A stretch of DNA of 64,000 nucleotides from Pseudomonadota bacterium. Its GTDB lineage: Bacteria; Desulfobacterota; Desulfobacteria; Desulfobacterales; JAHIVH01. Positions 30,613-54,396 of this stretch are shown here, one piece after another. Numbering within the stretch: the first letter of the stretch is position 1; every line of letters starts with the position of its first letter. Position numbers and translations under genes: made by a program. Below the pieces are notes generated by a model that saw only the letters and a program-made list of their open reading frames with translations, made no database searches and was not told the DNA's origin. The stretch lies in contig JAHIVH010000129.1 in the NCBI GenBank assembly GCA_018816735.1, positions 138,628-202,627 on the forward strand, in the 5' to 3' direction.

Positions 30613-30626
30613 CTGTTTTTACCCTA

Positions 30627-31937: not shown

Positions 31938-31951
31938 ATCTCCTTTTTAAA

Positions 31952-34030: not shown

Positions 34031-34061
34031 TAAATAAAAAAGGGATATTCCCTGTATTTAA

Positions 34062-35896: not shown

Positions 35897-35901
35897 GTCA
35901 T

Positions 35902-36837: not shown

Positions 36838-36852
36838 TTCCGGACTCTCCTC

Positions 36853-36890
36853 AAAAAAAAATCCCCGAACCAAAACTCATGGCCGGGGAT
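36853..36890 (-). terminator. Intrinsic terminator-like hairpin forming the riboswitch expression platform
   Basis: Minus strand reads TCCCCGGCC-atgagttt-GGTTCGGGGA followed by T9, directly upstream of the RBS of the first operon gene. Confidence 0.5.
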
Positions 36891-36894
36891 AGAT

Positions 36895-37085
36895 GTGTCC
36901 CATTGTCGTGCCCCTGTCCACGGAGGTTTCTATTATCAGGCAGGTTTTCTGACTCCCGGATCATCCTACTTGCTGCGCCTTCCCGTCAGAATTGTTTCCT
37001 GACAGTGGCCAGATGGCAGCTTTCGTCCCCGATCACAGCGGCGGGCCCGTCCCGGTTTTTCACCGGGTTCCCTTTTTAATCCGTT
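36895..37085 (-). promoter_or_regulatory. Cobalamin (AdoCbl) riboswitch
   Basis: The minus strand carries the consensus blocks AAAAGGGAACCCGGTGAAAAACCGGGAC, GCCGCTGT, GCCACTG and GGGAAGGC, plus the B12 box GAGTCAGAAAACCTGCC (36939-36955). Confidence 0.85.
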
Positions 37086-38041: not shown

Positions 38042-38677
38042 ATGTTTTCATTATTTCAAAGCGGCGGTTCATTCATGTATGTGATTTTATGCGTCTCTAT
38101 TATTGCGCTGGCCCTTTTTGCAGAAAGAGCCACCTTTCTCTACTTCAAAATGAAAATGAATATTGAGGGCCCGTTTCAGAAAATAGTGAATGCTTTGGAG
38201 AAAATGAACTACAGGGGCGCCATTGAGGAATGCACCCGAATCGAGTCGCATCCCATGGGCAGAATCCTGAAGGCAGGTCTTTTAAAGGCCGATAAACGGG
38301 ACAAGGATATCGAGCGGGTACTGGAAGAGAAGATTTTACAGGAAATTCCTTTAGTCAAGGCACGAATCAATCTTCTGACCATGTTCGCCAATATCTCAAC
38401 TCTTCTTGGTCTTCTGGGAACCATTATCGGTCTGATCAGTGCATTTCAAGGCGTAAGCAGTGCCAATGCCGCCATGAAACAGGAAATCCTCGCTAACGGT
38501 ATTTCCGTGGCCATGCTGACCACGGCATTTGGTCTTATTGTGGCCATCCCCTGCCTGGCAGGTTATTATATACTGAATAACCGGGGTGAATATCTTATCG
38601 ATCAGTTCGAGGAAAAAGCATTGTCCCTATTTAACACATTGTCCTCCATAAAAAGAGATAAGGAAGCATCATGCTAG
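38042..38677 (+). CDS. MotA/TolQ/ExbB-family proton channel (AglR-like by context)
   Basis: Three-TM layout with the conserved C-terminal half (LGLLGTIIGLISAF, NGISVAMLTTAFGLIVAIP). Confidence 0.85.
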   Translation: MFSLFQSGGSFMYVILCVSIIALALFAERATFLYFKMKMNIEGPFQKIVNALEKMNYRGAIEECTRIESHPMGRILKAGLLKADKRDKDIERVLEEKILQEIPLVKARINLLTMFANISTLLGLLGTIIGLISAFQGVSSANAAMKQEILANGISVAMLTTAFGLIVAIPCLAGYYILNNRGEYLIDQFEEKALSLFNTLSSIKRDKEASC

Positions 38678-39183
38678 GAAGAGGCCGAAAAAGAAGAAAA
38701 AGTGAAGATGACGTGGAACTGGATATGGTCCCCATCATGAATATGTTTCTGGTATTGATCCCGTTTCTATTGATGTCGGCCAGTTTTTTTCACTTAAAAG
38801 CCATCAACACATCTGTTCCTGTTCTTTCAAATGGTGAAAATAATGATGCCATAAAACCGGATGACACAGTCAAGCTCACATTGATCGTTGAAATAAAAAA
38901 GGACGGTATCCACCTTTCGGCATCATCAGACAATGCGGAAGAAAATATTTTGGCAGGTATAGAAAAAACGTTCAGAATTACAGGGAAAAATGATTATCCC
39001 TTTGACGAATTCAGCACCTGTTTGAGGGATATAAAGGCAAGATATCCGAAAAGCGATACGGTGATCATTATTCCGGAGAAGAGTGTGATTTATGAAACCA
39101 TTATTCAAACCATGGATGTGGCACGATACTCAAAGGAAAGCCCCATGTTTCCGAAAGTCGTGTTGTCCGGGAAAGTAGGATAG
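38671..39183 (+). CDS. ExbD/TolR-like protein, a variant with Asn in place of the conserved TM Asp
   Basis: The TM segment LDMVPIMNMFLVLIPFLL aligns with PLIDIVF of the canonical ExbD in this window. The Asn codon AAT is at 38740-38742. 7-nt overlap with the upstream gene. Confidence 0.75.
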   Translation: MLGRGRKRRKSEDDVELDMVPIMNMFLVLIPFLLMSASFFHLKAINTSVPVLSNGENNDAIKPDDTVKLTLIVEIKKDGIHLSASSDNAEENILAGIEKTFRITGKNDYPFDEFSTCLRDIKARYPKSDTVIIIPEKSVIYETIIQTMDVARYSKESPMFPKVVLSGKVG

Positions 39184-39195
39184 GAGAACGTGTAA

Positions 39196-39681
39196 ATGGC
39201 ACTTGGCAAAAGAAGAAGACAAAAAGGTGCATTTATTCCGCCCAAACTTCAGATTACGTCCATGATGGATATGTTTACCATCATATTGATTTTTCTCCTG
39301 TTTTCATTTTCAGATAAACAGGAAACCCTTTCCCTTGATAATGACCTGCAATTGCCCACATCCAATGCCAAGCTCGATTATAATGATTCGATAAAACTCG
39401 TGCTCACCAAAACACAGCTGCAAATCGATGATAAAGTTGTTGCCAAAATCAGGGATGGTCAGGTTCAGGGGTTGAATCCAAATGATCTCAAGGCATCTGA
39501 GCTTTACAAACAACTGGAATCAAGAAAAAAGAACGATGACAGGACGCGTGAAGATGAAGAAAAGGACACCATTCTGTTTCTTTGCGATAAAAGACTTTCG
39601 TTTGATACGATAAACAGCATTGTAAAAACAGCGGGAATGGCAGGATATCCCAACTTCCAATTTGGCGTATTAAAAAAGTAA
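39196..39681 (+). CDS. ExbD/TolR-like protein (conserved TM Asp retained)
   Basis: LQITSMMDMFTIILIFLLF. 161 aa. Confidence 0.8.
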   Translation: MALGKRRRQKGAFIPPKLQITSMMDMFTIILIFLLFSFSDKQETLSLDNDLQLPTSNAKLDYNDSIKLVLTKTQLQIDDKVVAKIRDGQVQGLNPNDLKASELYKQLESRKKNDDRTREDEEKDTILFLCDKRLSFDTINSIVKTAGMAGYPNFQFGVLKK

Positions 39682-39688
39682 CGGGAAA

Positions 39689-40024
39689 ATGATGAAGAAC
39701 ATGACAGTGACAATGAAAAGAATGATTCAGTCAGGCATCCTGTTTATGCTGATGATGGCTGTATGCGTGACAACATCTTATGCTGCTGAAAAACAGCAGC
39801 AAGGCGCGAACCAGCGGCTTGAAAACCGGATAGATTTCGGAAACTCCTATATCCTGGGGCAGAGCATCAAGTCCGGCGCAGTATACCTTTTGCAGCGAAA
39901 AAAGTCTGATATCAACAGCATGCTTCATGTCAGGGAAAATTATCGAAAAGAGATATTGGAAGATTTTACGGTCAATGATTTAAGCATGGACGATAAAAAA
40001 GGGAATTCCAAAAAAGAAAAGTAA
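39689..40024 (+). CDS. Small secreted protein (position analogous to GltF/NfsF)
   Basis: Signal peptide (ILFMLMMAVCVTTSYA/AEK). 111 aa, no recognised motif. Called mainly on tight operon spacing. Confidence 0.5.
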   Translation: MMKNMTVTMKRMIQSGILFMLMMAVCVTTSYAAEKQQQGANQRLENRIDFGNSYILGQSIKSGAVYLLQRKKSDINSMLHVRENYRKEILEDFTVNDLSMDDKKGNSKKEK

Positions 40025-40077
40025 GATTTCCGTCCTTGGAAGGGCAACTTAATTACGAGACGAAAAGGGATAGCACC

Positions 40078-42675
40078 ATGTCAGTAAATGCGTTTAACAT
40101 CAATCAGCAAGACGAATTTAACGATAAAGATGCATCACTTCCGATTCCATCTGGTCGTGAGTCTTCAACCCAGAACCGTTTCGTTGTTCAATTTTTTATT
40201 TTTTATGGCGAAAATTTTCTGGGTTGGGATTGTTTTTACAAAAAGAAAATTGTTATTGGAAGTGACGACACAGCGGATCTGATTCTGGTTGGTGAACACA
40301 TCGAACCGATTCATGCGGTTGTCTATTTTAAAGGAGACCAGGTTATTGTCTCCGATAAATCCAGTAACACGGGCCTGGTCGTCAACAATCGTTCTGTCAA
40401 AACGATCATTCTCGGCAATTACGATTATATCGATATTGGCCCCTATACGCTTAAAATCAAGGTCAAGCAAAACCAGAATCCGGTTTCAGAGGCCCTCAAA
40501 ACAGATTCGTCCACTGTAAAACAGGGACATGGCGGAGATTCATCGTCTGTTTCAGAAAAAAGTACCGTAAATAGCCAGGCATCGTCCATCAATACCCAAA
40601 AGCCCAAAAAAGCCATTTATTATCCGTTAAAGAAAAATAGCCCGCTGGAGATTTTACCTGCATCAAACACCGAAAAAATTGTTTCTGAACCAGAAGAAAA
40701 CAAACCGTCGGCAATCGCTGCAAAGAACGAAACATCCTATCGGCTTGTCTGTCAGGGTGAGATCGCCCCTGATAAAGATCCTGTGGAAGTGATCGAAAAC
40801 CTGGCCGTGATGATGAAGAAAGAAAAAGACGAGGTCGAGAAGCTGGTTTCAGGTTCCAGGGTTATTCTTAAAAAAGATATCGATATGGCTGCCGCTGAAA
40901 GACTTCGGAAAACATTTGAGCGATTGGGCCTTATCGTTAATATTGAAAAGACGGGCACCGCAGTTGAGAATCAGGAAATAGCGAAACCGGCGGTCCGGGA
41001 AGAGCAGGTTGAAAGGCCTGTGGAAGAGATCCCCGATCAACAGGAACTATCGAAACCGACACAAGATAATCAGAAAGAAACACAAAAGGAAGAAAAACAA
41101 CCGTCCGTATTTGAGGCTGTACCCCAACCTGAGCCTGAAATGGAAAAAGATCCATTTCAAACCATGTCTTTTCAATACGATGACGACGATGACGATGACG
41201 ACGAACCCGATACAGTCGCGGATTTTTTACTGAGAGAAAGAATTCTTGATTCAGGTATAAAATCATCTTCTTCCAAATCATCCGGTCAACCTCTTGTTGA
41301 AGTCATGAAATACCGTTCAGATACGGTTATGGATATCACTTATTTAAATGTAAATGAAAAATACGTCATTCAACATGGAAAAGACAAATTCTGTCTGGCC
41401 CGCCATCAGAAAAAAAACGGCGGCCTGTTTTATTTTGATGAGGAGATAGAAGGTATCGTTCAGTATGACGCCTCCCAACAGAAAGAAATAAATTCCCTCC
41501 GGTCTGACGACCGCATTCATAAAAAAGGAAAGGGAGTTTACAGGGAATCCCTTCCGAAAAATGGTGTCGTCATTCTGACCGATGATGTGTTTACCTATCA
41601 TATCAGGATGGTAGACGGTATCGAACTTCCGGAGGTTCACATTGCTTCCGGAAAGAGTATCGGCTTTCATAAATTTCTGGCCAAGTCGTCTGTATTCCAT
41701 GTGGTCATGATCCTGCTTCTGTCTCTTATTTACGCACTGAGCCAGAAACCTATAGTAAAACCGCCTGAAACCTATTTCGTCAACATGGATATGGATACGC
41801 TGGCTGAAATAAATAGGGTCTTGAAACCGCCTGTCAAACCTCAACCAGAAGTGATGGATCTGGCAGAAGAGCCCCCAAAAACAGTTGAAAAAAAGCCGGT
41901 TCCCAAACCTGATGCCCCTCAAAAAAATGTGGCAAAAGCACCTGCCAGGCAAATCAGCAAAAAGGGGAAGGGCACTGTTTCAAGATCACCTAAAGCCGGT
42001 GGCGGATTTGGAGATGGCAACGTGGCAAACCGGAATATCAATGAAGCCGGTCTTTTGGGGATTCTGGGAACAGCCATGGATGCCGCCGCTCCCAGTCAGG
42101 CGCTTGCTGCCGTCACCAATCTCGATGCCGTGTCGTCTTCATCATCCCAAAATGCCAATTTCAAGGTGGGTGGAATCGTAGGGAAGCTTGGCACATCCAG
42201 GATCGAGTTGACCTCACCCGGAGATATAGGCGGAGGAACCAAAGGGGATAGACAGGTCTTGAGAAGCTACGGCGCCGGCGGAGAAGGAACCGTTGCGGCC
42301 CTTGAAAAAGGAACAACCGGTCAGAAACAGGTCATGGGTCTTGTCAAGGCCAATCTGACCAAAACAGTTACCATACAGGGCGGGATGAGCAGAGAAGCGG
42401 TAAAACGGGTGATTGACGAACATCTGGACGAAATCAGTTACTGTTATGAAACCGCCCTTATTTCCAATCCGTCGATAATGGGCAGAGTCGTATTTGAATG
42501 GAAAATTCTCGCATCAGGACGTGTCGGTGAAGTGACGATCAAGTCCTCTTCGATCAATTCAAACGAGATTCATTCATGCATTAAATCTTCAATCAAAACC
42601 TGGCAATTTCCCAAACCCACAGGAAGCGAGGTTGTCGTATCATATCCGTTTATTTTCGATATTGTCGGATTCTAA
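40078..42675 (+). CDS. FHA-like / single-TM / Pro-rich / AgmX-PglI-type (TonB_C-like) C-terminal domain protein (GltG/GltJ-like)
   Basis: FHA-like block IVIGSDDTADLILVGEHIEPIHAVVYFKGDQVIVSDKSSNTGLVVNNRSV. Long E/K/P/Q-rich region with the run DDDDDDDDEPD. TM helix FHVVMILLLSLIYAL. Pro-rich spacer. C-terminal GGMSREAVKRVIDEHLDEISYCYETAL...VVVSYPFIFD. ATG 40078 is preferred over the TTG at 40036. Confidence 0.8.
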   Translation: MSVNAFNINQQDEFNDKDASLPIPSGRESSTQNRFVVQFFIFYGENFLGWDCFYKKKIVIGSDDTADLILVGEHIEPIHAVVYFKGDQVIVSDKSSNTGLVVNNRSVKTIILGNYDYIDIGPYTLKIKVKQNQNPVSEALKTDSSTVKQGHGGDSSSVSEKSTVNSQASSINTQKPKKAIYYPLKKNSPLEILPASNTEKIVSEPEENKPSAIAAKNETSYRLVCQGEIAPDKDPVEVIENLAVMMKKEKDEVEKLVSGSRVILKKDIDMAAAERLRKTFERLGLIVNIEKTGTAVENQEIAKPAVREEQVERPVEEIPDQQELSKPTQDNQKETQKEEKQPSVFEAVPQPEPEMEKDPFQTMSFQYDDDDDDDDEPDTVADFLLRERILDSGIKSSSSKSSGQPLVEVMKYRSDTVMDITYLNVNEKYVIQHGKDKFCLARHQKKNGGLFYFDEEIEGIVQYDASQQKEINSLRSDDRIHKKGKGVYRESLPKNGVVILTDDVFTYHIRMVDGIELPEVHIASGKSIGFHKFLAKSSVFHVVMILLLSLIYALSQKPIVKPPETYFVNMDMDTLAEINRVLKPPVKPQPEVMDLAEEPPKTVEKKPVPKPDAPQKNVAKAPARQISKKGKGTVSRSPKAGGGFGDGNVANRNINEAGLLGILGTAMDAAAPSQALAAVTNLDAVSSSSSQNANFKVGGIVGKLGTSRIELTSPGDIGGGTKGDRQVLRSYGAGGEGTVAALEKGTTGQKQVMGLVKANLTKTVTIQGGMSREAVKRVIDEHLDEISYCYETALISNPSIMGRVVFEWKILASGRVGEVTIKSSSINSNEIHSCIKSSIKTWQFPKPTGSEVVVSYPFIFDIVGF

Positions 42676-42688
42676 GGAGCCACTATTT

Positions 42689-43417
42689 ATGAAAAACATT
42701 TTGTCATTTGTCATTGCCATCATGCTTGTTTTTTCCATGACAGGTCCGTTTTTACAGACTGCATCCGGTAAAGAAGCGGAACCGGTTTTGGTCATCCAAA
42801 ACCGGGTGTTTCACAAAAATCATGAACTTTCGCTGTCTTTCGGGTATGTTGCGGATGATGATTTTTTTAATGTATACCCGGTTGGCATCAGTTATACCTT
42901 CAATTTTTCGGATCATATCGCCTGGGAAGTGGCAAGAGCGCAATTCAATCTGACCCGGGAGAAAGATCTGAAAGGCAATCTTGAAAATGAATTCGGCGCC
43001 ACCCCTTCTGAATTCACCGAACCGATTTATTCCATTCATTCCAGTTTTGTTTTAAAACCGTTTTACGGAAAGGAATCGATTTATAACAAGCGCGTCATCA
43101 ACCATGAAACCTATTTCCTTCTGGGCGCGGGTATCGCCAATTTTGAACGGAAAAAAAGCTATGGAGATCCGGACACGGAAAATGCAATCTCCATCGGTGT
43201 GGGTGTTGGCAAGAAGTATTATATCAATAAGCACCTCTGTGTGAATTTTGAACTTCGGGACTATGTCAACCTGAAAGAAGACAATACCCAGAACACCATA
43301 TTCTTTGGCATGAGCCTGGGGTTGCGGTTCAATCTTCTGCCGCGGAAAACAGATAGCGACAAAACCATCGAGACATTGAACGACTACCTGAAAATGGGGG
43401 ATTCAAATGCTTTATAA
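42689..43417 (+). CDS. Outer-membrane beta-barrel protein (GltH/GltK-like position)
   Basis: Signal peptide (MKNILSFVIAIMLVFSMTGPFLQTASG). Alternating hydrophobic beta-strand pattern (HELSLSFGYV, VGISYTFNF, CVNFELRDYV, FFGMSLGLRFNL). The start at ATG 42689 follows GGAG. Confidence 0.6.
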   Translation: MKNILSFVIAIMLVFSMTGPFLQTASGKEAEPVLVIQNRVFHKNHELSLSFGYVADDDFFNVYPVGISYTFNFSDHIAWEVARAQFNLTREKDLKGNLENEFGATPSEFTEPIYSIHSSFVLKPFYGKESIYNKRVINHETYFLLGAGIANFERKKSYGDPDTENAISIGVGVGKKYYINKHLCVNFELRDYVNLKEDNTQNTIFFGMSLGLRFNLLPRKTDSDKTIETLNDYLKMGDSNAL

Positions 43418-44927
43418 CAGGCGTTTAGCGGGTTTCCTGGGGATATTCATTCTGATGCTGTCGGTCTTGGCAGGGCCTTACCAGAGCGACGTGTATGCCG
43501 TTTCTTCCAAAAACGAATCTGATAAGAAAGATCCAAAGGTCCAACCTGTCGTTGCAAATGAATATGATCGCAAGGATTTTGAAAAAGGCTATCATTACTT
43601 TGAAAAGGAAGATTATGAAGCGGCGGCGCCTTATTTTTATCGGTTTGTAAAAAATCATACAGCCGATGATGAAGACTATGAATGGGCGGAATTTTTTCTG
43701 GCCATCTCTCTTGCAAAAACCGGCTTTTCCCATGCATCGGTGGATATCCTTTCTATGCTGGTCACCCGGAAGCCCAATCAGAAAATTGTCACGTATGCCC
43801 TGGAAGTATTTGAAACGATAGTGAGGACAAAACCGTTTGACAGGGAACTGGTGATCAATCAGGCCATATGTGATCAGGATTATGGTTTTGTAGATGGCAG
43901 ACTCTCCAATTTTATTCATTACTATCAGGGCGTCTATGACTGGCAGCATGGATTTTTCGAGTGGGGAGACGGTCATTTCAGGAATATTTCAAAAGAGTCG
44001 TATTACTATTACAAATACCTGTACCAGAAGGCCAAACAGGAACTTCACAATGATAAAATCGATGAGGCTATCGCCACGTTAAAAACCATTATGGTGAGAG
44101 ATGTCAAGGAAACGGATCTGAAGGATGATGTGCGGAAAATGCTGGCAAGACTTCTTTATGAAAAAGAAGATTTCAAGGCAGCCAATCGACTGTATCAGGA
44201 CATTGAACAGAATATTCTGGATCAGTCCCAGAATCTCATGGAACTCGCATGGGTTCAATACAGACAGGGAAATCCGGAAAAAGCCATGGGGCTTTTATAT
44301 GCATTTGAGGCGCCTTCTTTTAAAAACAGTTTTACACCGGAGTACTTCATATTGAAATCGTTTATCTATAAGGATGTCTGCCACTACCAGCGTGCTTTGG
44401 ATGTGGTCGAGGATTTCAGGGCACGCTACGGGGATGCCCTTACCCATATCTATAACAGGAAAGAACCGATCACCAATGAAGCGTTGATACTCGTCCTTTT
44501 AGGTAAAAAACAGATCAACGATACGTTCAAATTCCTGAATCTTTTGACCAGGGAAAAAGAGAAGGTGAAGGGTATCAAGGACAGCGTGTTTCAATTCTAT
44601 ATGAACAGGCTCTATGATCTCAAAATAAGGGAAAGTGCGGAAACGCTAAGAAATCAGATTCAGGAGTCTTACGAAGAAATGGCCAATGAGCTTTTGAAAT
44701 ATGAGGAAGAAGCCTACCTGATGGCATATGAGATCGGTCTTGACATGTATCAGCGGGTTACGGATCACCATTATGCAGGTGAAGAAAACAAGGAACAAAA
44801 ATCTGACAAGGGAATCGTGGTATATCCGTTCCAGGGAGAATTCTGGAATGACGAATTATCAGATTATCATGTGAGTCTGCCGGATAAATGCAACCAAATG
44901 GAAGAATGGGATATCTTTTTCAAATGA
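43407..44927 (+). CDS. Exported TPR-repeat protein (GltE/NfsE-like size and position)
   Basis: Signal peptide, then repeated TPR-like A/Y/L patterns (FEKGYHYFEKEDYEAAAPYFYRF, YEKEDFKAANRLYQDI, YRQGNPEKAMGLL). Overlaps the upstream gene by 11 nt. Confidence 0.7.
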   Translation: MLYNRRLAGFLGIFILMLSVLAGPYQSDVYAVSSKNESDKKDPKVQPVVANEYDRKDFEKGYHYFEKEDYEAAAPYFYRFVKNHTADDEDYEWAEFFLAISLAKTGFSHASVDILSMLVTRKPNQKIVTYALEVFETIVRTKPFDRELVINQAICDQDYGFVDGRLSNFIHYYQGVYDWQHGFFEWGDGHFRNISKESYYYYKYLYQKAKQELHNDKIDEAIATLKTIMVRDVKETDLKDDVRKMLARLLYEKEDFKAANRLYQDIEQNILDQSQNLMELAWVQYRQGNPEKAMGLLYAFEAPSFKNSFTPEYFILKSFIYKDVCHYQRALDVVEDFRARYGDALTHIYNRKEPITNEALILVLLGKKQINDTFKFLNLLTREKEKVKGIKDSVFQFYMNRLYDLKIRESAETLRNQIQESYEEMANELLKYEEEAYLMAYEIGLDMYQRVTDHHYAGEENKEQKSDKGIVVYPFQGEFWNDELSDYHVSLPDKCNQMEEWDIFFK

Positions 44928-47900
44928 AAAAAGGTCATATGTTAAAAAAAATAATCGGTGTATGTCTTTTTGTACTGCTGCTTTCAGAATGGTCGGGTAT
45001 GGTCCTTGCCGCTGTTGATCAGTACGGGTATCAGCAGACGAATCAGGATGAGGAACGGAAAAAATATATCGCCAAACTACTGGAGGACAGACAAAAAGTT
45101 GAAATGGCGATTTTAAACACCCGTTCCCTTATCGATAAATCAAGGAACAGGCCCTATCTGCCGGAGCTTTACTTAAGACTTGCAGAACTCCACATTGAAA
45201 AATCGAGAATCGCTTTCTTTGTAAGAAAAAACCAGAGAGACGGTGAAAGCTCTTCCCTCGATCAGTTTGAATCAAATACCCTGAAAAACAGGGCGCTTGA
45301 GATTTATCAGCGAATTCTGGACGATTTCCCTGATTTTCAGGATCAGGATAAAGTGCATTTTTTCATGGCCCATGAATTCAGGGAGCTCAATAAAACCGAT
45401 GAGATGATCGCCCATTACCGGGAAATTATACGTAAATACCCCAATAGTTCATATGTGCCGGAATCCTATCTTCTTCTGGGAGATTACTTCATGGGCAAAG
45501 GCGATGTGGACATGGCCAAACGTCATTATGAAAAGGTCATCGATTACCCGTTCAGCCAGGCTGTGGTTATTGCACGGTATAAACTGGCCTGGTGTCATAT
45601 CAACAATGCGGATTATAAAAGTGCCATTCATCTGTTCGAAGATGCCGTGAGTCAGTCGGAAAATCTGAAAAATATCGATATTGATACATACAGGCGCGTG
45701 GATGTCAAACAGGAAGCCCTGATCGACATGGCCTATTGTTATACCGAATGTTACAAAGACAGCACCCCTGAAGAGGCACTTACTTACTTCCAGAAATATA
45801 GCTGGTCCAGACAGGTCTATGTGGTCGTTCTCGAAAAGCTTGCCTACAGATATCTTTTAAAGAAAAAATGGCATCATGCAGCCCTGGTTTACAGACAGCT
45901 TTCTATTTTGCAGCAGGATGCAGACAAGCTGCTTGATTATTCGAAAAATATTTTTGAATGCGTCCAGGCCATGGGAAAATTCGATGATGTGGATCAGGAT
46001 ATGGCCATTATCGTAAAAGCGTTGAAAAAACAGAAATACGCTGCTGACGTCACGGATGAAGTCAAAGCGAAAAACGTCAAGGATTATGAGTTGTATGCAA
46101 GAGATCTGGCCACCCACCTGCATCAGAAAGCGAGGAAAGACAAATCCGCAGATGACTTCAGGCGTGCGGCAGACGCTTATAAAACCTATCTCGAATTTTT
46201 TAACGAAAGTCCTGTGAAACAGGAAATGAACGTGAATTATTCAGAAGCACTCTTTTCCTCCAAAGATTACCTTCATGCAGGAAAGCAGTATGAAAAACTC
46301 GCACTTGCATCTGAAAAAGATCCGAAAAACAGAAAAGAAAATTTATACAGTTCGGTCATATCCTATTATACCGCCATTAAAAACAAGGATAACCTGGATT
46401 CATATGAACTGGCATTTGCCAGAGGCGGACTGAAAGAAACAGGGAAATCGTATGCCAAGGAGTTCCCCACGTCCCGCTATGTGGAGGATGTGTTATTCAA
46501 TGTGGCATGGATTTCCTACGATGCCGGCAACTATGACGACGCGATCAAAGATTTTTCAGAATTTGTGAATAAATATCCGGGCGGCAAACCGGCGAGTGCG
46601 GCGGTTCATCTGATTCTGGATGCCTATCATCTGAAGGAGGATCATGAAGGATTGATTGCCTATGGCCGGAAAGTATTGGCCGACAACCGTATAAGGGATT
46701 CGAAACTCAAACAGGATGTGGTCCAGATCGTCAAGGCCACGGAATCCAAAGTGGTATCCAATCTCACCATCGCAGCCATGGATGACTGGGAAAAAGGGAA
46801 ATCCGAGCTGCTGGACCTGGCCGAAGACAGCACGACATCCGGCATGGGTGAGCAGGCGTTGAATGCGCTTATTATTTCCGCAAAAGACAAAGACGATCTT
46901 CAGGCGCTTTTTACCGGCGGCAACACATTCATCAAGAAATATCCGAAGTCGGACAAGCTTGAAAGCACCATGAATGCAATGATCGATTCATCCCTTAAAA
47001 TCAATCAATACAGAATGGTGGCTTCCTACCTGGAATCCTTTGCCGAAAAATTTCCCAAAAACAAGGTGGCACAAGATTTTCTCAATCAGGCTGGTCAGAT
47101 CAGAAAAAATCTGGGCCAGAATGAGCTTTCCAACAGAAATTACATCAGAATCCTGAATACCTATTCTATGAACGACGGTGTTGCCGATGAGGTTGTCTTC
47201 AACATGGCTGATAATTACATCGCGCTCAACAAGGATGACGGGGCCATCAGTGTGATGGAGGGCAACTTAAAGAAGTTGTCGGAAACCGGAAAAGTTAGAG
47301 CAGAAGCCATGATCGCCGGTTTATATCTGAAAAAAGGCCAGGAGAAAAATGCACTGAAGTACAGAAAAATGGCCTATAGCGACTATTCCGGAAAGACGGC
47401 TGGAAAAGATCCTGCCCTTGATGAGGCTTTTGCCGAAATGGCATTTCATGCGGTGCAAAGAAATTACAACGACTACTCAGCCCTTCAGTTGAAAGGGAAA
47501 ATAGACAATACGGTTGTGGCCCGGAAAGCCAAACTTTTGGAGGATCTGGAAAAAGGGTATCAATCCATCATGGGGTACCCGTCTCCGGTATGGGTGCTTT
47601 CAGCCTGTTATTATGCTGCCCGGATCAATCATGAATTCGCCCGTTTCCTGATTGAATCGCCATTGCCTGAACTGTCCGCCGACCAGAAGGAAAACTATCT
47701 TAAGATCATTCAGCAGAAAGCGGATGGTTATTCAAAAAAAGGGGATCAATATCTGGATACGTTCGTCAAACAGGCCAAGAAACTTGAAATTTGTGATTCC
47801 AAAGTGGCAGGGCTTGTTGATTTGTCATCAGGAAAGGTGACCCAAAAAGGTCGTATGCAATCGTTTAACGGCAGCGAAGAACGGGTTTCGGTCGCCCAGA

Positions 47901-48355
47901 ACAGCCTGAAAGATGAGGATACAAAGATCCTTCATGAAAAATTGATGAAACATTCCAATGATGCCGGTCTTCTTTTATCTCTGTCATCTGCGTTCATCAA
48001 CAAGGGAGATTATCGTCTTGGCCTCTTAATCGCCCAGAATGCCCTGTCCGGGATAAAAACCGGAAAGAGTGAGGTCAAGGCAGATTTGTACAATAATATT
48101 GGCGTGGCTTATCTCTTCATGGGGCAGGACGAGCTTGCAAAAGACGCATTTAAATCATCATTGGAAAATTCCGGAAAAAATATCGGCGCCCAGGTGAATC
48201 TGGCAGGCCTTTATTCGTATTATGGACATGAAAGACGTGCCTATTCGATCTATGACACACTTCCGGGTACAAAGCTGATCGAAGAAACCGGTCAGATCAT
48301 TCACCCAAAAGCAAAAGAACTCTACATGGCCCAGCGTGGCGGGAAAAGGAAATAA
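44924..48355 (+). CDS. Large exported TPR-repeat protein (GltD/NfsD-like size and position)
   Basis: Signal peptide (LKKIIGVCLFVLLLSEWSGMVLA), then more than 15 TPR-like units (for example LLGDYFMGKGDVDMAKRHYEKVI, KLAWCHINNADYKSAIHLFEDAV, NIGVAYLFMGQDELAKDAFKSSL). ATGA start/stop overlap at 44924. Confidence 0.75.
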   Translation: MKKGHMLKKIIGVCLFVLLLSEWSGMVLAAVDQYGYQQTNQDEERKKYIAKLLEDRQKVEMAILNTRSLIDKSRNRPYLPELYLRLAELHIEKSRIAFFVRKNQRDGESSSLDQFESNTLKNRALEIYQRILDDFPDFQDQDKVHFFMAHEFRELNKTDEMIAHYREIIRKYPNSSYVPESYLLLGDYFMGKGDVDMAKRHYEKVIDYPFSQAVVIARYKLAWCHINNADYKSAIHLFEDAVSQSENLKNIDIDTYRRVDVKQEALIDMAYCYTECYKDSTPEEALTYFQKYSWSRQVYVVVLEKLAYRYLLKKKWHHAALVYRQLSILQQDADKLLDYSKNIFECVQAMGKFDDVDQDMAIIVKALKKQKYAADVTDEVKAKNVKDYELYARDLATHLHQKARKDKSADDFRRAADAYKTYLEFFNESPVKQEMNVNYSEALFSSKDYLHAGKQYEKLALASEKDPKNRKENLYSSVISYYTAIKNKDNLDSYELAFARGGLKETGKSYAKEFPTSRYVEDVLFNVAWISYDAGNYDDAIKDFSEFVNKYPGGKPASAAVHLILDAYHLKEDHEGLIAYGRKVLADNRIRDSKLKQDVVQIVKATESKVVSNLTIAAMDDWEKGKSELLDLAEDSTTSGMGEQALNALIISAKDKDDLQALFTGGNTFIKKYPKSDKLESTMNAMIDSSLKINQYRMVASYLESFAEKFPKNKVAQDFLNQAGQIRKNLGQNELSNRNYIRILNTYSMNDGVADEVVFNMADNYIALNKDDGAISVMEGNLKKLSETGKVRAEAMIAGLYLKKGQEKNALKYRKMAYSDYSGKTAGKDPALDEAFAEMAFHAVQRNYNDYSALQLKGKIDNTVVARKAKLLEDLEKGYQSIMGYPSPVWVLSACYYAARINHEFARFLIESPLPELSADQKENYLKIIQQKADGYSKKGDQYLDTFVKQAKKLEICDSKVAGLVDLSSGKVTQKGRMQSFNGSEERVSVAQNSLKDEDTKILHEKLMKHSNDAGLLLSLSSAFINKGDYRLGLLIAQNALSGIKTGKSEVKADLYNNIGVAYLFMGQDELAKDAFKSSLENSGKNIGAQVNLAGLYSYYGHERRAYSIYDTLPGTKLIEETGQIIHPKAKELYMAQRGGKRK

Positions 48356-48358
48356 ACC

Positions 48359-49699
48359 ATGTTCTTTATGAAACATATTTTAATCGGTTTTGTCATTTTC
48401 TTCATCGGGTGTGGTGGCGGCGGTTCCGGTAACAGCGGTGATGACAGCTCAAACAATGACAATGACACAACCTCACAGGAATGGGTCTGGGAGAAAGCAA
48501 AGATCACAGAAATAGACGGTGGCGGCATGCTGACACCTAACATCATTGCATCCAAAGGAAATGCCCATGATGTGCACATTGTCTATTTTGAAGATGATAC
48601 GGCAAATGGATATGCCATAAATCACCTGATCGTAGATGACAGCGCGTTTACAGTATCTGCCGAAGATAAAATTCTCTCGGTTGACAATTGCAGAACATTG
48701 GGCGTTTCAGGTGCTGCATCAGGCACGCCTGTTGTGGCTTATCAGGGGGGTGAAATAAGGGAATGCGGTTCCGAACAGCAGTCTGATGCCATGATAAGCA
48801 TTTGGAGTGGCAACGCCTGGACCGAATATACAGCAGGAATCGGATATGTGGAAAGAAATCCCGTGTTTCAGGATGGCCTGGCCGGGAAAACCGTGGCAAC
48901 AGCCATGGATTCGAAAGGAGATATCCATGTCTGCTATCAGTTCTTTTATGAAGGATGCGATGCCATGAATTTTAATTTTCCGGACCTCCTTTATGTAAAA
49001 AAAGATGGCGCGAATCTTTCCGCAGCGAGTGCTGAAGAAGTCGTTACCGGAAATGTCTATAATCCCAACGGTACGGCAAGCGAGCAGAACAGAATCGGGG
49101 ATCGGGTGGCTATCATGGTGGATGAAAACGACGCGCCTGTTATTTTTTACGATGCCGATCTTTCACCTGTCATGCCGGACCCGGATGAGAAAGGGCTTCG
49201 GGTGTCACGAAAAACAGGGGACCGTTTTGAGCATGCCTGGATCGAAACCGGCATTAAGGTCGCCTATTTGAGCTGTGCCATGGATAAGGACGGAAACCCT
49301 GCGGTGGCCTACTATATAGAAGATGAATATGAAGATACAACCGGAACTCACGAGAAATGTCTGAAATTCGCCATATTGAAAAATGACCAATGGACGGTTC
49401 AGATGGTGGATGAAAGCGTTCTCTGCGGCAATTACTGCTCGCTATCCTTTGATCAGAATGGAAATCCATGGATTGCCTATTATGCGGAAGGCAATCACAG
49501 CGGCAGTATTTCCATGAAGGATCTGAAAGTCGCGTATGATGATGGTACGGCCTGGAAGAAAGAAGTTGTTTCAGAAACAGGAGATATCGGCAGTTTCAAT
49601 ACCCTGTGGTTTGATACGGATAATATGGCACGGATTTGTTCCTATGAAAAAGTCGGGAAGGCAATTTATATGTTTGTTCAGCGTGAAGGAGGACAGTGA
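48359..49699 (+). CDS. Lipoprotein with seven internal D-x-x-G-x-P-x-[IV]-A-Y-type repeats (probable 7-bladed beta-propeller)
   Basis: Lipobox FFIGC followed by GGGGSGNSGDD. Repeats: KGNAHDVHIVYFED, ASGTPVVAYQGG, DSKGDIHVCYQF, DENDAPVIFYDA, DKDGNPAVAYYIED, DQNGNPWIAYYAEG, DTDNMARICSYE. Confidence 0.65.
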   Translation: MFFMKHILIGFVIFFIGCGGGGSGNSGDDSSNNDNDTTSQEWVWEKAKITEIDGGGMLTPNIIASKGNAHDVHIVYFEDDTANGYAINHLIVDDSAFTVSAEDKILSVDNCRTLGVSGAASGTPVVAYQGGEIRECGSEQQSDAMISIWSGNAWTEYTAGIGYVERNPVFQDGLAGKTVATAMDSKGDIHVCYQFFYEGCDAMNFNFPDLLYVKKDGANLSAASAEEVVTGNVYNPNGTASEQNRIGDRVAIMVDENDAPVIFYDADLSPVMPDPDEKGLRVSRKTGDRFEHAWIETGIKVAYLSCAMDKDGNPAVAYYIEDEYEDTTGTHEKCLKFAILKNDQWTVQMVDESVLCGNYCSLSFDQNGNPWIAYYAEGNHSGSISMKDLKVAYDDGTAWKKEVVSETGDIGSFNTLWFDTDNMARICSYEKVGKAIYMFVQREGGQ

Positions 49700-50493
49700 T
49701 GAAAACAGTTAGATTATTAATAACAGGTATACTTTCGTTTTTGCTGTTCAATATCCATGCAACAGCGGATATCGATCCCAATGCATGGTTTGACGAATGC
49801 CCGGACGCCAATTGCGGTGCACCGCCTGCAGGTGGTGTGGGCGGTGGTGGCGCAGGGGGCGGTCCCATTGTCGTCAGTTATGATTTGGGACCGTTATGGT
49901 CCCTTGAGGAAGATGCAGACGCAGATGGTGTACTGGATACCCGGGATAATTGTCCCTATCTTGAAAACGACCAGGAAAACTATGATGGGGATGACTACGG
50001 GGATGCCTGCGATAACTGTCCGGCGGTTGTCAATAATGATCAGGAGGACACGGACGGTGATGGCACGGGCGATGCCTGCGATGGCGATATAGATGGGGAC
50101 GGCCTTTCAAACAGCCAGGATAACTGTTCTCTTGTATCAAATCCCCTTCAGACAGATACGGACGGCGATGGCATAGGGGACCTTTGTGACGACGATGATG
50201 ATAATGACGGCATCCCGGATACAGTGGATAACTGCAGCAAGGAACCGAATCTTGATCAGGCGAATGCGGATTTTTATATGACAGGCGATACCCTGGGCGA
50301 TGCCTGTGACGACGACTGGGATAATGACGGGTTTACAGATGATGTCGATCTCTGTCCACGGTCACATTCGGATCTGAATTCAGATACAGATGGCGACGGC
50401 ATAGGAGATGTGTGTGATAATTGTCCGAGGATTTCAAATTCGGATCAGGCGGATTCAGACCAGGACGGAAAAGGAGATGCTTGTGATGGCTAA
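49696..50493 (+). CDS. Secreted thrombospondin type-3 (TSP3) calcium-binding repeat protein
   Basis: Signal peptide and a Gly run (GGVGGGGAGGG), then about ten DxDxDGxxDxCD(N)CP loops (for example DTDGDGTGDACD, DTDGDGIGDLCD, DSDQDGKGDACD). The start overlaps the upstream stop. Confidence 0.8.
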   Translation: MMKTVRLLITGILSFLLFNIHATADIDPNAWFDECPDANCGAPPAGGVGGGGAGGGPIVVSYDLGPLWSLEEDADADGVLDTRDNCPYLENDQENYDGDDYGDACDNCPAVVNNDQEDTDGDGTGDACDGDIDGDGLSNSQDNCSLVSNPLQTDTDGDGIGDLCDDDDDNDGIPDTVDNCSKEPNLDQANADFYMTGDTLGDACDDDWDNDGFTDDVDLCPRSHSDLNSDTDGDGIGDVCDNCPRISNSDQADSDQDGKGDACDG

Positions 50494-52087
50494 GGGTAAG
50501 AACACCTATCTTATGATTTTTTTATCGTTCCTGTTGATGGTTGGCTGCACCAGCAGTCCGCCTCTTGAACGGACCCAGGAAAGACGGCAGGTGACGCTGT
50601 CCGGCTCGTTTCTGACCGAAAGCCCGGATGAAATCAATTTTCCGGTCAAAGTCCTTTTTGCCATCGACTGCTCGTTAAGCATGGGCGATGAAGAAGTCGG
50701 CGTTGTGGCCGGTTCGGATCCCTATTTTTTAAGAATCGAAGCGGTCAGAAATTTTATCAATGAATACAACAGCAATGAAAACACGTCCTTTGAAGTGATG
50801 CTGTGGAGCAATACGGTGTTTGAAACCACCCATGGATTTACCAAAGACCCGGCTGTTCTCGATAATATCCTTACGGATGTTCAAAATGATACAACCACGG
50901 ACTACCTGGGAACCCTTGATGAAATGTTTGTGGATATCCGAAACGATATTCTGGATTCAAATGAAGAGAACCGTGTCAGATCAAAATACGTCGTGGTGTT
51001 TCTGAGCGACGGTGTATCAAACGCCCAGGGCATGATTCAGGATGACGCCGATATCTGGAACAGCGTGGAAGATATCAATGACATGGTTGCGGAATATGGT
51101 GTGGGGTCGTTTAATTTTCATACATTCCTCCTCCTTGGAAATTTCGGAGCAGATGCAAGCGGTCAGGCTGCACTGGCCCATGCGGAAAATACCCTTCAGG
51201 GCATGGCAGAAAGGGGAGATGGCCAGTTCAGACTGTTTGAAAATGCGGAAGCAATTGATTTTATCAATATTGTGGATATGCGGCTTACCGTGGAATACGA
51301 TGTTAAATTTATGGTGGCCTATAATTTCAATGTGCGCCCGGGAATCGATCTGATCTACGTGGACAGCGATGGGGATGGCCTTTCAGATGAAGAAGAAGAA
51401 ATGTATGGCACGGATCCGACCCTTAAAGATTCGGATGCTGACGGGTTTTCGGACTTTTTTGAAATCAAGCTAAGCTCACCCGGACATGTTCTTGATCCCC
51501 TTGACCCGGCTGACAGCAATTGCGATGCAGGCGTCACAGGAATCGATTCGGACAGTGATGGATTGTCGGACTGCGAGGAGTATGTCAAGGGCACAAACAG
51601 GCTCAATCCGGACTCGGATTCCGATGGCATCCCTGATGGCATCGAGTTTCTGACAGGAACCAATCCCCTGGAGGAACAGCAGGCAGTGGATACCGATTTT
51701 GATGGTCTGCTCGATTGGCTAGAAGTTCAGCGGCATTCCAATGTCTCCTCCAATGATGAGATCATCCGGGAACGGTACAGCTATAACTACGACATCAGGG
51801 ATGGTGGACTGGTGGAGATTGATCAGGGAACGGAAATGGCGTCTTTCGTACGTCAGTATGAATTTGATATCTCAAACATCGATGTCATGGAAACACTCGG
51901 GTATACAATGGCAAATGGTGAAGCGTGGCTTGAAGGTGATAATTTGATCCGCTTTTATCTGGCGGAAGTACCGGAAGATACGCCTGACCATGCACCGGTT
52001 TTCAGAGTGGCGGAAGTGATTGTAAACATCAATGATGATGATAAGCATATTGTGTTGTCGCCTGCGGATTTCAAACTTATACAATAG
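50486..52087 (+). CDS. Lipoprotein with a VWA-like domain (DxSxS MIDAS) followed by TSP3 repeats (CglD-like architecture)
   Basis: Lipobox LLMVGC. VLFAIDCSLSMGDEE (DxSxS) and VVVFLSDGVSN. Five TSP3-type loops (DSDGDGLSDEEE, DSDADGFSD, DSDSDGLSD, DSDSDGIPD, DTDFDGLLD). ATG 50486 lies 10 nt after AAGGAG and overlaps the upstream gene by 8 nt. Confidence 0.75.
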   Translation: MAKGKNTYLMIFLSFLLMVGCTSSPPLERTQERRQVTLSGSFLTESPDEINFPVKVLFAIDCSLSMGDEEVGVVAGSDPYFLRIEAVRNFINEYNSNENTSFEVMLWSNTVFETTHGFTKDPAVLDNILTDVQNDTTTDYLGTLDEMFVDIRNDILDSNEENRVRSKYVVVFLSDGVSNAQGMIQDDADIWNSVEDINDMVAEYGVGSFNFHTFLLLGNFGADASGQAALAHAENTLQGMAERGDGQFRLFENAEAIDFINIVDMRLTVEYDVKFMVAYNFNVRPGIDLIYVDSDGDGLSDEEEEMYGTDPTLKDSDADGFSDFFEIKLSSPGHVLDPLDPADSNCDAGVTGIDSDSDGLSDCEEYVKGTNRLNPDSDSDGIPDGIEFLTGTNPLEEQQAVDTDFDGLLDWLEVQRHSNVSSNDEIIRERYSYNYDIRDGGLVEIDQGTEMASFVRQYEFDISNIDVMETLGYTMANGEAWLEGDNLIRFYLAEVPEDTPDHAPVFRVAEVIVNINDDDKHIVLSPADFKLIQ

Positions 52088-52128
52088 GCGTTTTGAAACA
52101 CGGGACTTGGGAGTAAAGGAGAAACGTT

Positions 52129-54396
52129 ATGAAAAAAATACACTATCTAATTCCGGTATTCATGTTGCTGTTGGCTTCATGCGGCGGCCTGGGCAGTTCG
52201 TCTGATGATTCGGATACGGCGGAATTGTCTTTGAACAAGAAAGTCAAGGGAACGATTTCAAAAGAAGGGGAAGTGGACTGGTACCGCTTTCGGGCGGTTG
52301 ACGCCAATGCACTTCTGCAGGTCAAGTGCACCAGTGAAACCTTAAGGCCGGAAGTCGATCTTTTGGTGGGCGTATATCAGGAAGACACCAATGGAAACAA
52401 GGTGCTCATATATGCCGATCACGCGCCGGACGGAGGCATGTCCCCGGCTGACCTTACCCTTCATGCCTATATTGATGTTCCCAAGGATATTTATATCTCC
52501 GTCCGGGATCTGATGGATGATGATTTCTCGGATAATCCCTATTATATTTCCGTTGATATGGAAGCTTCTGCCGAGGAAAATGACAGTTTTACAACAGCAA
52601 CCACCCTGGCCGTGGATGACGGTATGGGGGCCTCGGACAACATCGGCCGAGTGGGGGATATCGACTGCTACCAGTTTACATCAACTGGCGGTGTTTATGA
52701 TGTCAACGTGGAATTCACCCCATTTGCAGGCACGAGTGTCCAGTTGTCCGTAGATTTATATGACAGCGAAGGAAATATCGTGGGTTCCCAGACCAGCGCC
52801 ACCAGGAAAAGCTATCATCTGATTCACTTTCTTCCTGCCGGCCTGTATTTCGTTCATATCGATGACTATGGCATGAATGATTTTGACACGGCATCCACCT
52901 ATACGGTTTTCGTAAATACCGTAACTGCCGATGAAGCAAATGAGAATGATTCCTCATCTCAGGCGGAAACCGTGAATATGTCTTCCTGGAATACGGATGT
53001 GACGATCACAGGTACCATCGCCTATGCGGAAGACAAGGATTACTACCTGCTTTCACTTCCATCACCCCTTGACGGTTTCAGGGTGCTTGAACTGAGTTTT
53101 TTTGCGGCATCATCGTTTGAATACAACATCCATCTGTTGGATCAAAACCTGAATACTGTATTTTCCCAGACATATAAAGGGGGATCAACCCTTTTCCATA
53201 CCCTATTGAAACTGGAATCCGGCAACGCATATCTGGTTATAGAGCCTGTGACCGGCACAACCGGTTTTGAATCGTCTTCTTATACGGCCACCCTTCAGGT
53301 ACAGAATATCGTGGATGATGCAGACACGACGCCAAATGAAAACGATACGATTGATACGGCAGATACGCTGACGCCTTCAAGCAATCCGGCATCTGCCACA
53401 TCCGGAAAAATTTCCTACAGAGGTGATGCAGACTGGTATTCATTAACCATTGCCGCTCATGCCTCGCCGCAGATTCTGGAAGTGTTTGTAAACGCCCCCT
53501 TATCTTCAGTGGCTTACGCCTTAACCGTTATCGGCGATTCTGTGAATGAAAAAATATACAACAGTCATCCGGAAACCATCCCCACGCAACTGAAAACATC
53601 ATTCCTGGTGTCTGCCAATGATGAATCAGCTGTGTATTCTTTCCGCGTGGGCGATTTTCAGGATGATGACGGCGATGATGCAGCTTATACCATCCGTGTT
53701 GATTTGAAGGATATTCCCCCCACGCTGCCAGCGGTGGCGCAAACAGCATCCCCATATGGCGCAACCGTCGCCTATTATAATGAAGTAAATGATACTGGCG
53801 GAAACGAAGTTACCCTTGAATACAATCCGGTTACGAAGAAAACCTTTAATGCCGATACCACCCGCCTTGATTTTGCCAATGCAACAGTGGAACAGAACAC
53901 GCCTGCAGATGGTCAAACCCGACTCACATTCCCATGGATCGGCGGCTATATCGATTATCAGGGAGATCAGGACTGGTTCATGATCGATTTCCAGCCGCTT
54001 GACAGCTCAAGCACCTGGTATTACGAACTGTCAGTGGAATTTTATGCGCCTTCGACGGATGTGGAATATGTGTGGAAATTCTATCCGGACAGAAACGACA
54101 ATGATGTGATGGCCGAGCAGTCAAGCGGTTATGACGGATTTATCGCAAGTGCAGGTGACACGGGTATTTCAGAGGCCGCCTTTGATATCACCACGCCCGC
54201 ACAGGGCGACAGCGATTTCTGGGTGGGCCGCTCATGGCAGGGCCAGGCCTTTTTCAGCATCAGTGATTTCAACTATCTCTATGACGAAACAGAGGCGGAC
54301 AACACCGTTCCAGACGACGACTGGGGCGGATACGGCCAGGCGCCATATTATTTCAGATTAACCCTTATCTATCATCCAGGCGTTTCAAACCCCTGA
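52129..54396 (+). CDS. Lipoprotein with five PPC-like (pre-peptidase C-terminal type) modules
   Basis: Lipobox LLLASC. Recurrent G-x-I-x(3-4)-D-x-D-W/Y-Y motif: GTISKEGEVDWYRF, GRVGDIDCYQF, GTIAYAEDKDYYLL, GKISYRGDADWYSL, GGYIDYQGDQDWFMI. Confidence 0.65.
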   Translation: MKKIHYLIPVFMLLLASCGGLGSSSDDSDTAELSLNKKVKGTISKEGEVDWYRFRAVDANALLQVKCTSETLRPEVDLLVGVYQEDTNGNKVLIYADHAPDGGMSPADLTLHAYIDVPKDIYISVRDLMDDDFSDNPYYISVDMEASAEENDSFTTATTLAVDDGMGASDNIGRVGDIDCYQFTSTGGVYDVNVEFTPFAGTSVQLSVDLYDSEGNIVGSQTSATRKSYHLIHFLPAGLYFVHIDDYGMNDFDTASTYTVFVNTVTADEANENDSSSQAETVNMSSWNTDVTITGTIAYAEDKDYYLLSLPSPLDGFRVLELSFFAASSFEYNIHLLDQNLNTVFSQTYKGGSTLFHTLLKLESGNAYLVIEPVTGTTGFESSSYTATLQVQNIVDDADTTPNENDTIDTADTLTPSSNPASATSGKISYRGDADWYSLTIAAHASPQILEVFVNAPLSSVAYALTVIGDSVNEKIYNSHPETIPTQLKTSFLVSANDESAVYSFRVGDFQDDDGDDAAYTIRVDLKDIPPTLPAVAQTASPYGATVAYYNEVNDTGGNEVTLEYNPVTKKTFNADTTRLDFANATVEQNTPADGQTRLTFPWIGGYIDYQGDQDWFMIDFQPLDSSSTWYYELSVEFYAPSTDVEYVWKFYPDRNDNDVMAEQSSGYDGFIASAGDTGISEAAFDITTPAQGDSDFWVGRSWQGQAFFSISDFNYLYDETEADNTVPDDDWGGYGQAPYYFRLTLIYHPGVSNP

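Follow-up and report, generated by a model that had tools for sequence, protein, structure and literature searches.

A GltG-like protein with a degenerate FHA domain and a predicted force-transducing role in a conserved gene cluster of Desulfobacterota

Results

Locus and protein architecture

The window analyzed here is a 64,000-nucleotide stretch of a Desulfobacterales genome (contig JAHIVH010000129.1, positions 138,628 to 202,627). It encodes an 865-aa protein that we interpret, with a probability of roughly 0.75, as a force transducer of the TonB/TolA type within a Glt-like envelope machine and as the counterpart of GltG of Myxococcus xanthus. The gene is the fifth of 12 tightly packed genes on the plus strand (38042-54396; Table 1). 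The open reading frame (ORF) spans 40036-42675 (+), with an in-frame ATG at 40078 and a ribosome-binding-like AAGGGA just ahead of it. This start is the one used by an identical protein from a metagenome-assembled genome (MAG) at NCBI, which bears the name "AgmX/PglI C-terminal domain-containing protein", and close homologues begin at the same position. The initial annotation, made by a model from the sequence, described a giant TonB-like protein; family members range over ~650-1000 aa, and a protein of 865 aa is not giant among them.

From the N terminus, the protein consists of an FHA domain (FHA1), a domain (MID) similar to the one at the C terminus of ribosomal protein L7/L12, an acidic run with a short helix, a juxtamembrane beta domain, and the membrane helix. 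These are followed by a Pro/Lys-rich spacer, a conserved Gly-rich segment, and an AgmX/PglI C-terminal domain. An AlphaFold2 (AF2) model built on 32 sequences has four confident domains and one helix, joined by linkers with pLDDT (per-residue model confidence) values below 50. The confident elements are residues 33-132 (all beta), 218-293 (beta-alpha-alpha-beta-alpha-beta), 405-515 (all beta), the helix at 530-554, and 767-862 (alpha/beta).

The family set of 245 representatives (E < 1e-30) came from an exhaustive representative search. Low-complexity words swamped a homologue search with the full-length protein, which returned five matches only, and queries with the C-terminal part or a linker-free alignment gave mostly fragments.

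Membrane helix and periplasmic region

Hydropathy analysis identified one hydrophobic segment (residues 537-555), in agreement with the single membrane helix first proposed, and no N-terminal signal-like segment. The 536 residues ahead of the helix are acidic and include an FHA domain, and Lys is more abundant on the N-terminal side of the helix. Together with a pair of Cys residues in the C-terminal domain (C789 and C834) that fits a periplasmic location, these features support a cytoplasmic location for the N-terminal part, as the initial annotation had it. We infer the N-inside orientation from the domain types and the conserved Cys pair.

The helix carries Ser537 and His541 in an S-x3-H arrangement whose spacing equals that of the SHLS motif, the site where TonB and TolA bind their motors (PMC12204202). 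Ser is retained in 117 and His in 127 of the 136 relatives. The fourth position of SHLS is Tyr in this protein, and Ser occurs at the next residue in 41 relatives. Another conserved motif, E-x-[RH]-F-[VA]-x-[VIL]-D, lies 9-17 residues beyond the helix. The position equivalent to F567 is F or W in 122/127 sequences, V568 is V or A in 122/127, and D571 is D or E in 93/127. A "motor box" strand following the helix has been described for TonB and TolA (PMC12204202), and the post-helix motif matches it in position. No strand is predicted there in the AF2 model, so the motif stays a candidate motor box.

A periplasm-spanning Pro-rich rod had been proposed for the next region. The spacer is Pro-rich, but it comprises just ~85 residues (556-640) and gives way to ~125 Gly-rich residues (641-766) that are nearly invariant among close homologues and disordered alone. 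In the published M. xanthus model the counterpart of this segment, GltG residues 428-543, wraps GltD; by analogy, the Gly-rich segment probably binds the large TPR protein of the cluster.

The C-terminal domain matches NF033768 (AgmX/PglI C-terminal domain) over residues 771-860 with 113.4 bits (cutoff 40), and among PDB sequences a profile of this region picks up the C-terminal domains of TonB proteins from several species (E 2e-4 to 2e-2). Thus the proposed AgmX/PglI identity stands and the homology to TonB is distant; the general TonB models, including TIGR01352 (16.4 bits versus a cutoff of 27.1), stay below their thresholds. C789 and C834 are invariant in 151 sequences, a pattern that fits a periplasmic disulfide.

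Cytoplasmic domains

FHA1 matches the Pfam FHA family (PF00498) over residues 58-121 with 37.2 bits (gathering threshold 20.7), and its best Pfam match is Yop-YscD_cpl (PF16697, 40.8 bits). In a Foldseek search with the whole AF2 model, FHA domains rank first (E from 2e-7; TM-score to the target ~0.8), and the top FHA matches include GarA, OdhI, Rv0020c, CT664, and PscD. The FHA-like N-terminal block seen at the outset is therefore borne out in profile and in fold; profile searches of both ends of the protein, suggested at that stage as a check, gave scores above the cutoffs for FHA and for the AgmX/PglI domain.

Alignment to GarA and 112 family members identified the positions of the canonical phosphothreonine-binding residues. 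Gly (G61) and His (H79) are kept. The Arg of the beta3-beta4 loop is replaced by S62, the Ser of the beta4-beta5 loop by E76, and the second Arg by P77, as expected from the reading of GR as GS and of SR-x-H as EPIH in the initial annotation. The Asn of the beta6-beta7 loop, a loss not spotted earlier, is replaced by T98. A canonical site has Arg, Ser, and Asn in three loops, and FHA1 has S62, E76, and T98 instead.

This loss extends well beyond the present protein. The full Arg-Ser-His-Asn set is present in only 21 of the 112 family representatives, all of them distant matches (~30% identity) in which the four residues are 100% conserved; ligand residues are lost in the other 91. Framework residues of the FHA fold are common to both groups. 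All 15 FHA1-bearing relatives from Desulfobacterota, Nitrospirota, and unclassified MAG loci have a degenerate site. The substitutes differ from one close relative to another (S, K, G, or Q at position 62; A, E, or Q at position 76), which suggests relaxed constraint on the pocket rather than a new specific pocket. A precedent is SctD of type III secretion, whose FHA domains are without the Arg and Ser and are regarded as acting independently of phosphate (bioRxiv 10.1101/2020.09.22.308627). To judge from its residues, FHA1 probably binds its partner without phosphothreonine in the same manner. A crude regular-expression scan of the 64-kb window found no Hanks-kinase motif and no small-GTPase motif.

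The region after FHA1 had been taken for a long low-complexity stretch rich in E, K, P, and Q. This description needs revision for residues 218-293, which are confidently folded. Searched against the PDB, a family profile of this MID domain matches 13 different L7/L12 sequences, the best of them at E 1.1e-4, so the supposed low-complexity stretch holds a real domain. PF00542 is touched by 15 of the 30 members in which the domain was found, among 147 family representatives. MID shares with the bL12 C-terminal domain its order of secondary structure elements and a C-terminal motif, K..(x)..A..L...LE.aGA.vE. Unlike bL12, it is embedded in a membrane protein, and the helix residues that contact translational GTPases in bL12 appear, from an alignment read by eye, not to be conserved. 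In some relatives, among them protein P0084 and the relative at locus L011 of a Thermodesulfobacteriota MAG, the domain is duplicated in tandem, with the two copies ~60 residues apart.

Eight consecutive Asp residues (D368-D375) followed by E-P-D are present as originally read, and they are encoded by mixed GAT and GAC codons. The tract belongs to a family-wide feature: at least 6 D/E per 8 residues, ~35-41 residues before the juxtamembrane domain, in 123/136 relatives, with an amphipathic helix of the FSLL type next in the chain. Members whose FHA1 is canonical also have it, and therefore the acidic run is no stand-in for the lost phosphothreonine site. The structural paper on the Glt machine (PMC11761067) makes no mention of an acidic run and helix.

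The juxtamembrane beta domain (residues 405-515) occurs in 136/147 relatives and is the likely counterpart of the "central FHA" of M. xanthus GltG. Modelled alone, it gives weak Foldseek matches (E 0.12-0.8), among the top of which FHA-fold proteins recur: spliceosome chain X (also matched by FHA1), CT664, TIFA, and APLF. The "central FHA" of M. xanthus GltG was itself found at a Foldseek E of ~1e-2 (PMC11761067).

Gene cluster

The TolQ-like and two TolR-like genes at the head of the cluster presumably encode a proton motor. Downstream of the transducer gene are genes for an outer membrane (OM) beta-barrel, two TPR proteins, two proteins with TSP3 repeats, and two proteins that match no Pfam or NCBIfam family. 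The TPR proteins match GltC below its cutoff only (98 bits versus 450). Wherever contigs extend, the gene order is collinear in ~20 loci of two phyla, including Desulfobacterales (Desulfocicer, Desulfosudis oleivorans, Desulfobacterium), Desulfomonilia, and Nitrospirota/Thermodesulfovibrionia.

Luciano et al. defined a core complex outside myxobacteria that consists of gltD, E, G, and C with aglR, Q, and S (PMC3169522). The transducer gene is likewise linked to GltC/D/E-type TPR genes and to TolQ/TolR-type motor genes, and the 12-gene cluster matches and extends this core complex. Scans against Pfam and NCBIfam identified no TolB-like or Pal-like family match among the cluster proteins, and none of the GltI, GltJ, GltH, or GltK type.

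Table 1. Features of the transducer gene and its cluster (positions in the window; aa, amino acids).
Feature	Residues or length	Position	Strand	Evidence
Gene 1, TolQ/ExbB-like		38042-38677	+	Pfam MotA_ExbB 100 bits; best score against TolQ models
Gene 2, TolR/ExbD-like		38671-39183	+	ExbD 52 bits
Gene 3, TolR/ExbD-like		39196-39681	+	ExbD 43 bits
Gene 4, small exported protein, weakly CglF-like	111 aa	39689..40024	+	NF033764 29 bits, below cutoff; position conserved
Gene 5, GltG-like predicted transducer	865 aa	40078..42675	+	ORF list; identical NCBI MAG protein
FHA1, FHA fold with degenerate phosphothreonine site	33-132	40174..40473	+	Pfam; AF2 pLDDT 81-97; Foldseek
MID, L7/L12 C-terminal-like, beta-alpha-alpha-beta-alpha-beta	218-293	40729..40956	+	pLDDT ~95; family profile
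Acidic run D368-D378 and amphipathic helix 380-392 (ADFLLRERIL)	368-392	41179..41253	+	Conservation; helix low-confidence in model
Juxtamembrane all-beta domain	405-515	41290..41622	+	pLDDT 87-96
Transmembrane helix, TonB/TolA-type S537-x3-H541-x6-L548	537-555	41686..41742	+	Hydropathy; model helix 530-554
Post-helix motif PETYFVNMD, candidate motor box strand	563-571	41764..41790	+	Conservation
Pro/Lys-rich periplasmic spacer	556-640	41743..41997	+	Composition; mostly low-confidence/disordered in model
Conserved Gly-rich segment	641-766	41998..42375	+	Invariant columns; pLDDT < 50
AgmX/PglI C-terminal domain, distantly TonB_C-like, C789/C834	767-865	42376..42672	+	NF033768
Gene 6, OMP_myx_plus OM beta-barrel		within 42689..54396	+	Family scans
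Gene 7, GltC-like TPR protein	506 aa	within 42689..54396	+	Family scans
Gene 8, TPR protein	1155 aa	within 42689..54396	+	Family scans
Gene 9	446 aa	48359-49699	+	No Pfam/NCBIfam match
Gene 10, TSP3-repeat protein, MtsC-like		within 49696-52087	+	215 bits
Gene 11, VWA+TSP3 protein, CglD/MtsD-like		within 49696-52087	+	
Gene 12	755 aa	52129-54396	+	No Pfam/NCBIfam match

Discussion

Comparison with GltG and related proteins

In M. xanthus, the Agl-Glt gliding machine has GltG (PglI, MXAN_4867) as its transducer, and the order of parts in GltG is the same as in the protein described here: an N-terminal FHA domain, a disordered linker, a second beta domain (only weakly FHA-like here) abutting a single helix, a Pro-rich spacer, a segment that is disordered alone, and an AgmX/PglI/TonB_C-like domain (PMC11761067). 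Its gene, too, is found together with motor genes of the TolQ/TolR type and genes for TPR proteins. The two differ in length (640 aa in M. xanthus versus 865 aa here) and in the additional L7/L12-like domain, and the cluster described here is without matches to several Glt families, as noted above. The FHA1 ligand residues are lost here, whereas 21 of the distant family matches keep the canonical set; these may or may not include M. xanthus GltG itself. The GltG architecture, the core complex outside myxobacteria, and the pseudo-FHA domains of SctD are already known. The clade-wide loss of the phosphothreonine site and the inserted L7/L12-like domain are not described in the GltG papers cited here, nor are the family-wide acidic-run/helix, Ser/His, and post-helix motifs of GltG-type proteins.

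TonB and TolA share with the transducer the Ser-x3-His of the helix, a conserved post-helix stretch, a Pro-rich spacer, a C-terminal domain homologous at the profile level, and an operon with ExbB/TolQ and ExbD/TolR homologues. Unlike in TonB and TolA, 536 cytoplasmic residues with three folded domains precede the helix, and there are two different TolR paralogues. Its partner is probably neither a TonB box nor TolB but a TPR protein.

The likeness to SctD (YscD/PrgH/MxiG/PscD) concerns the FHA module only. Both are single-pass inner membrane proteins with a cytoplasmic FHA fold that is without the phosphothreonine-binding Arg and Ser; PF16697 is the best Pfam match, and PscD and CT664 are among the Foldseek matches. 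Unlike SctD, the transducer has no ring-forming periplasmic domain, and no secretion-system genes accompany it. M. xanthus GltJ (AgmX) resembles the transducer in its single helix, in its long and disordered periplasmic region, and in a C-terminal domain of the same family. However, GltJ has an N-terminal zinc ribbon and a GYF domain and is without FHA, whereas Pfam identified no ZnR or GYF match here, and the GltJ model NF033761 scores 40.4 bits against a cutoff of 450, over the C-terminal domain only. The 865-aa protein is GltG-like, not GltJ-like.

A proposed mechanism

The force-transducing role first suggested for this protein is supported by the adjacent TolQ and two TolR genes, the S537-x3-H541 motif, the post-helix motif, and the published two-hybrid binding of M. 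xanthus GltG to the TolQ homologue AglR (PMC3169522). We propose that the membrane helix would dock on the rim of a TolQ-like pentamer via Ser537 and His541, with the pentamer plugged by the TolR1/TolR2 pair, and that the conserved post-helix strand may touch the TolR-like periplasmic domains. The Pro/Lys spacer would cross part of the periplasm, and the Gly-rich segment and TonB_C-like end would clamp the large periplasmic TPR protein. Through that protein, the transducer could connect to the OM barrel and to the VWA/TSP3 products of the downstream genes. With docking, plug, and clamp arranged in this way, proton flow would pull on, or rearrange, an outer-envelope complex. The initial annotation placed the protein as a link from the cytoplasm and inner membrane to the outer membrane. 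Its transducer role fits this description, but in the published M. xanthus model GltG contacts the periplasmic protein GltD and does not meet the outer membrane directly.

On the cytoplasmic side, the juxtamembrane beta domain with the acidic run and helix may sit under the motor; in the M. xanthus model the juxtamembrane domain of GltG covers three AglR subunits (PMC11761067). The distal FHA1 and L7/L12-like domains could be docking modules for cytoplasmic partners, and the predicted partner of FHA1 in Myxococcus is GltI (PMC11761067).

The TolR-like paralogues differ at the membrane position that, from a reading of the motif, is equivalent to the proton-binding Asp of TolR/ExbD, with N24 (PIMNMF) in the first and D25 (SMMDMF) in the second. 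The Asn/Asp split is invariant across the related loci examined (18 with Asn, 19 with Asp). This split suggests that the plug is a heterodimer in which just one residue can be protonated.

Several observations weigh against the interpretation as a GltG counterpart that transduces force. The GltG equivalog model NF033760 gives 114.7 bits against a cutoff of 650, with the best stretch confined to residues 695-861, which places the protein outside the equivalogs of Myxococcus GltG; none of ten family members scanned reached the cutoff. Pfam TonB_C (PF03544) remains below threshold (14.5 bits versus a gathering threshold of 24.6). The second beta domain is FHA-like only at the weak Foldseek E values given above (0.12-0.8), and it gave no sequence-level FHA signal in a Pfam scan of 37 members, in a profile search against PDB sequences, or in hhalign (6.6% probability against FHA1). 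Every protein-protein contact in the proposed mechanism is borrowed by analogy, either from TonB/TolA or from models made for M. xanthus. FHA1 keeps H79 and the framework of its fold, so that it could conceivably bind phosphopeptides in an unusual mode. The hosts, Desulfobacterota and Nitrospirota, are not known to glide, unlike Myxococcus.

Going further, the cluster of Desulfobacterota and Nitrospirota may represent a relative of the Glt machine that is distinct from it and phospho-independent, and in which the cytoplasmic arm is a purpose-built docking platform of four parts: the pseudo-FHA, the L7/L12-like domain, the acidic run with its FSLL-type helix, and the juxtamembrane beta domain. 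The acidic run and helix would then be a switch that engages the motor with, or releases it from, a cytoplasmic partner, in this clade one recruited via the L7/L12-like domain instead of through the Myxococcus GltI/GltJ/MglA system. We offer this elaboration as a speculative one, with the odds clearly against it.

Alternative interpretations

The protein could instead be the TolA equivalent of a divergent Tol-Pal-like system that serves OM stabilization or cell division, not adhesion or motility. The motor gene does score best against TolQ models, the 1155-aa TPR protein approaches the YbgF/CpoB model (81 bits, cutoff 90), and Luciano et al. consider the core complex alone unlikely to drive motility in non-gliding bacteria (PMC3169522). 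Yet the cluster has neither a TolB-like nor a Pal-like family match; it encodes an OMP_myx_plus barrel, a GltC-like TPR protein, and CglD/MtsD-like VWA/TSP3 proteins of the adhesin type, and TolA is without a cytoplasmic region like the 536 residues found here. We regard this alternative as improbable.

About equally unlikely is a second alternative, which concerns the input to the machine: FHA1 may still read phosphorylation, either through a non-canonical pocket or with the acidic run as a phosphomimetic ligand in cis. Conservation of G61, H79, and the FHA framework would be in keeping with such a role, as would the conservation of the acidic run in 123/136 relatives and the complete site of 21 distant family members. 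On the other hand, the phosphate-contacting Arg and Ser are gone (S62, E76) and Asn has become T98, the variable substitutes at 62 and 76 look like relaxed selection, and the acidic run is present alongside canonical FHA1 domains as well.

That the protein is an ordinary TonB paralogue energizing TonB-dependent receptors, such as the one encoded at 31952-34030 (-), is a reading that we reject as highly improbable. In its favor, the C-terminal profile does match TonB C-terminal domains, and the genes immediately upstream include those for a receptor of this kind, an ABC importer of the FecCD type, and a further ExbB-like protein. These uptake genes, however, form an operon of their own on the opposite strand; Pfam TonB_C and TIGR01352 stay below their thresholds where the AgmX/PglI domain reaches 113 bits; the helix begins at residue 537 and not at the N terminus; and loci of different phyla retain the gene order with its barrel and TPR genes.

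Implications

Since 2011 it has been asked what the Glt core complex does in bacteria other than the gliding myxobacteria. Sulfate reducers and Nitrospirota have a well-conserved version of 12 genes. If the protein is the transducer of a Glt-like machine, it keeps the features for coupling to TolQR (the Ser/His helix motif, the candidate post-helix strand, and the TonB_C-like end), and its cytoplasmic input appears rewired, with the phosphothreonine site lost and an L7/L12-like domain gained. The family-wide acidic-run/helix motif offers a concrete target for mutation in M. xanthus GltG. Current models are refined by these findings and none is overturned.

Neighboring genes and partial relatives

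The minus-strand uptake operon that adjoins the cluster (29965-37002) encodes an ExbB-like protein, the TonB-dependent receptor, an ABC ATPase, a FecCD permease, and a periplasmic binding protein. Its proximity explains the temptation of a TonB reading, yet it is unrelated. A scan for promoters and terminators was uninformative, with counts equal to those in shuffled sequences.

Within the cluster, the TSP3 and VWA+TSP3 genes are among the most conserved (60-78% identity across phyla), and the transducer gene is among the least. The genes for the 446-aa and 755-aa proteins are syntenic in Desulfobacterota and Nitrospirota, at 36-71% identity.

Some metagenome proteins of 293-298 aa consist of FHA1 and the juxtamembrane domain only, without the helix. 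Others comprise only the C-terminal 140-200 aa, yet are encoded on long contigs of up to 340 kb. Such fragment-like relatives (P0064, P0065, P0045, and P0053) may be split genes, frameshifts, or products of mis-called starts.

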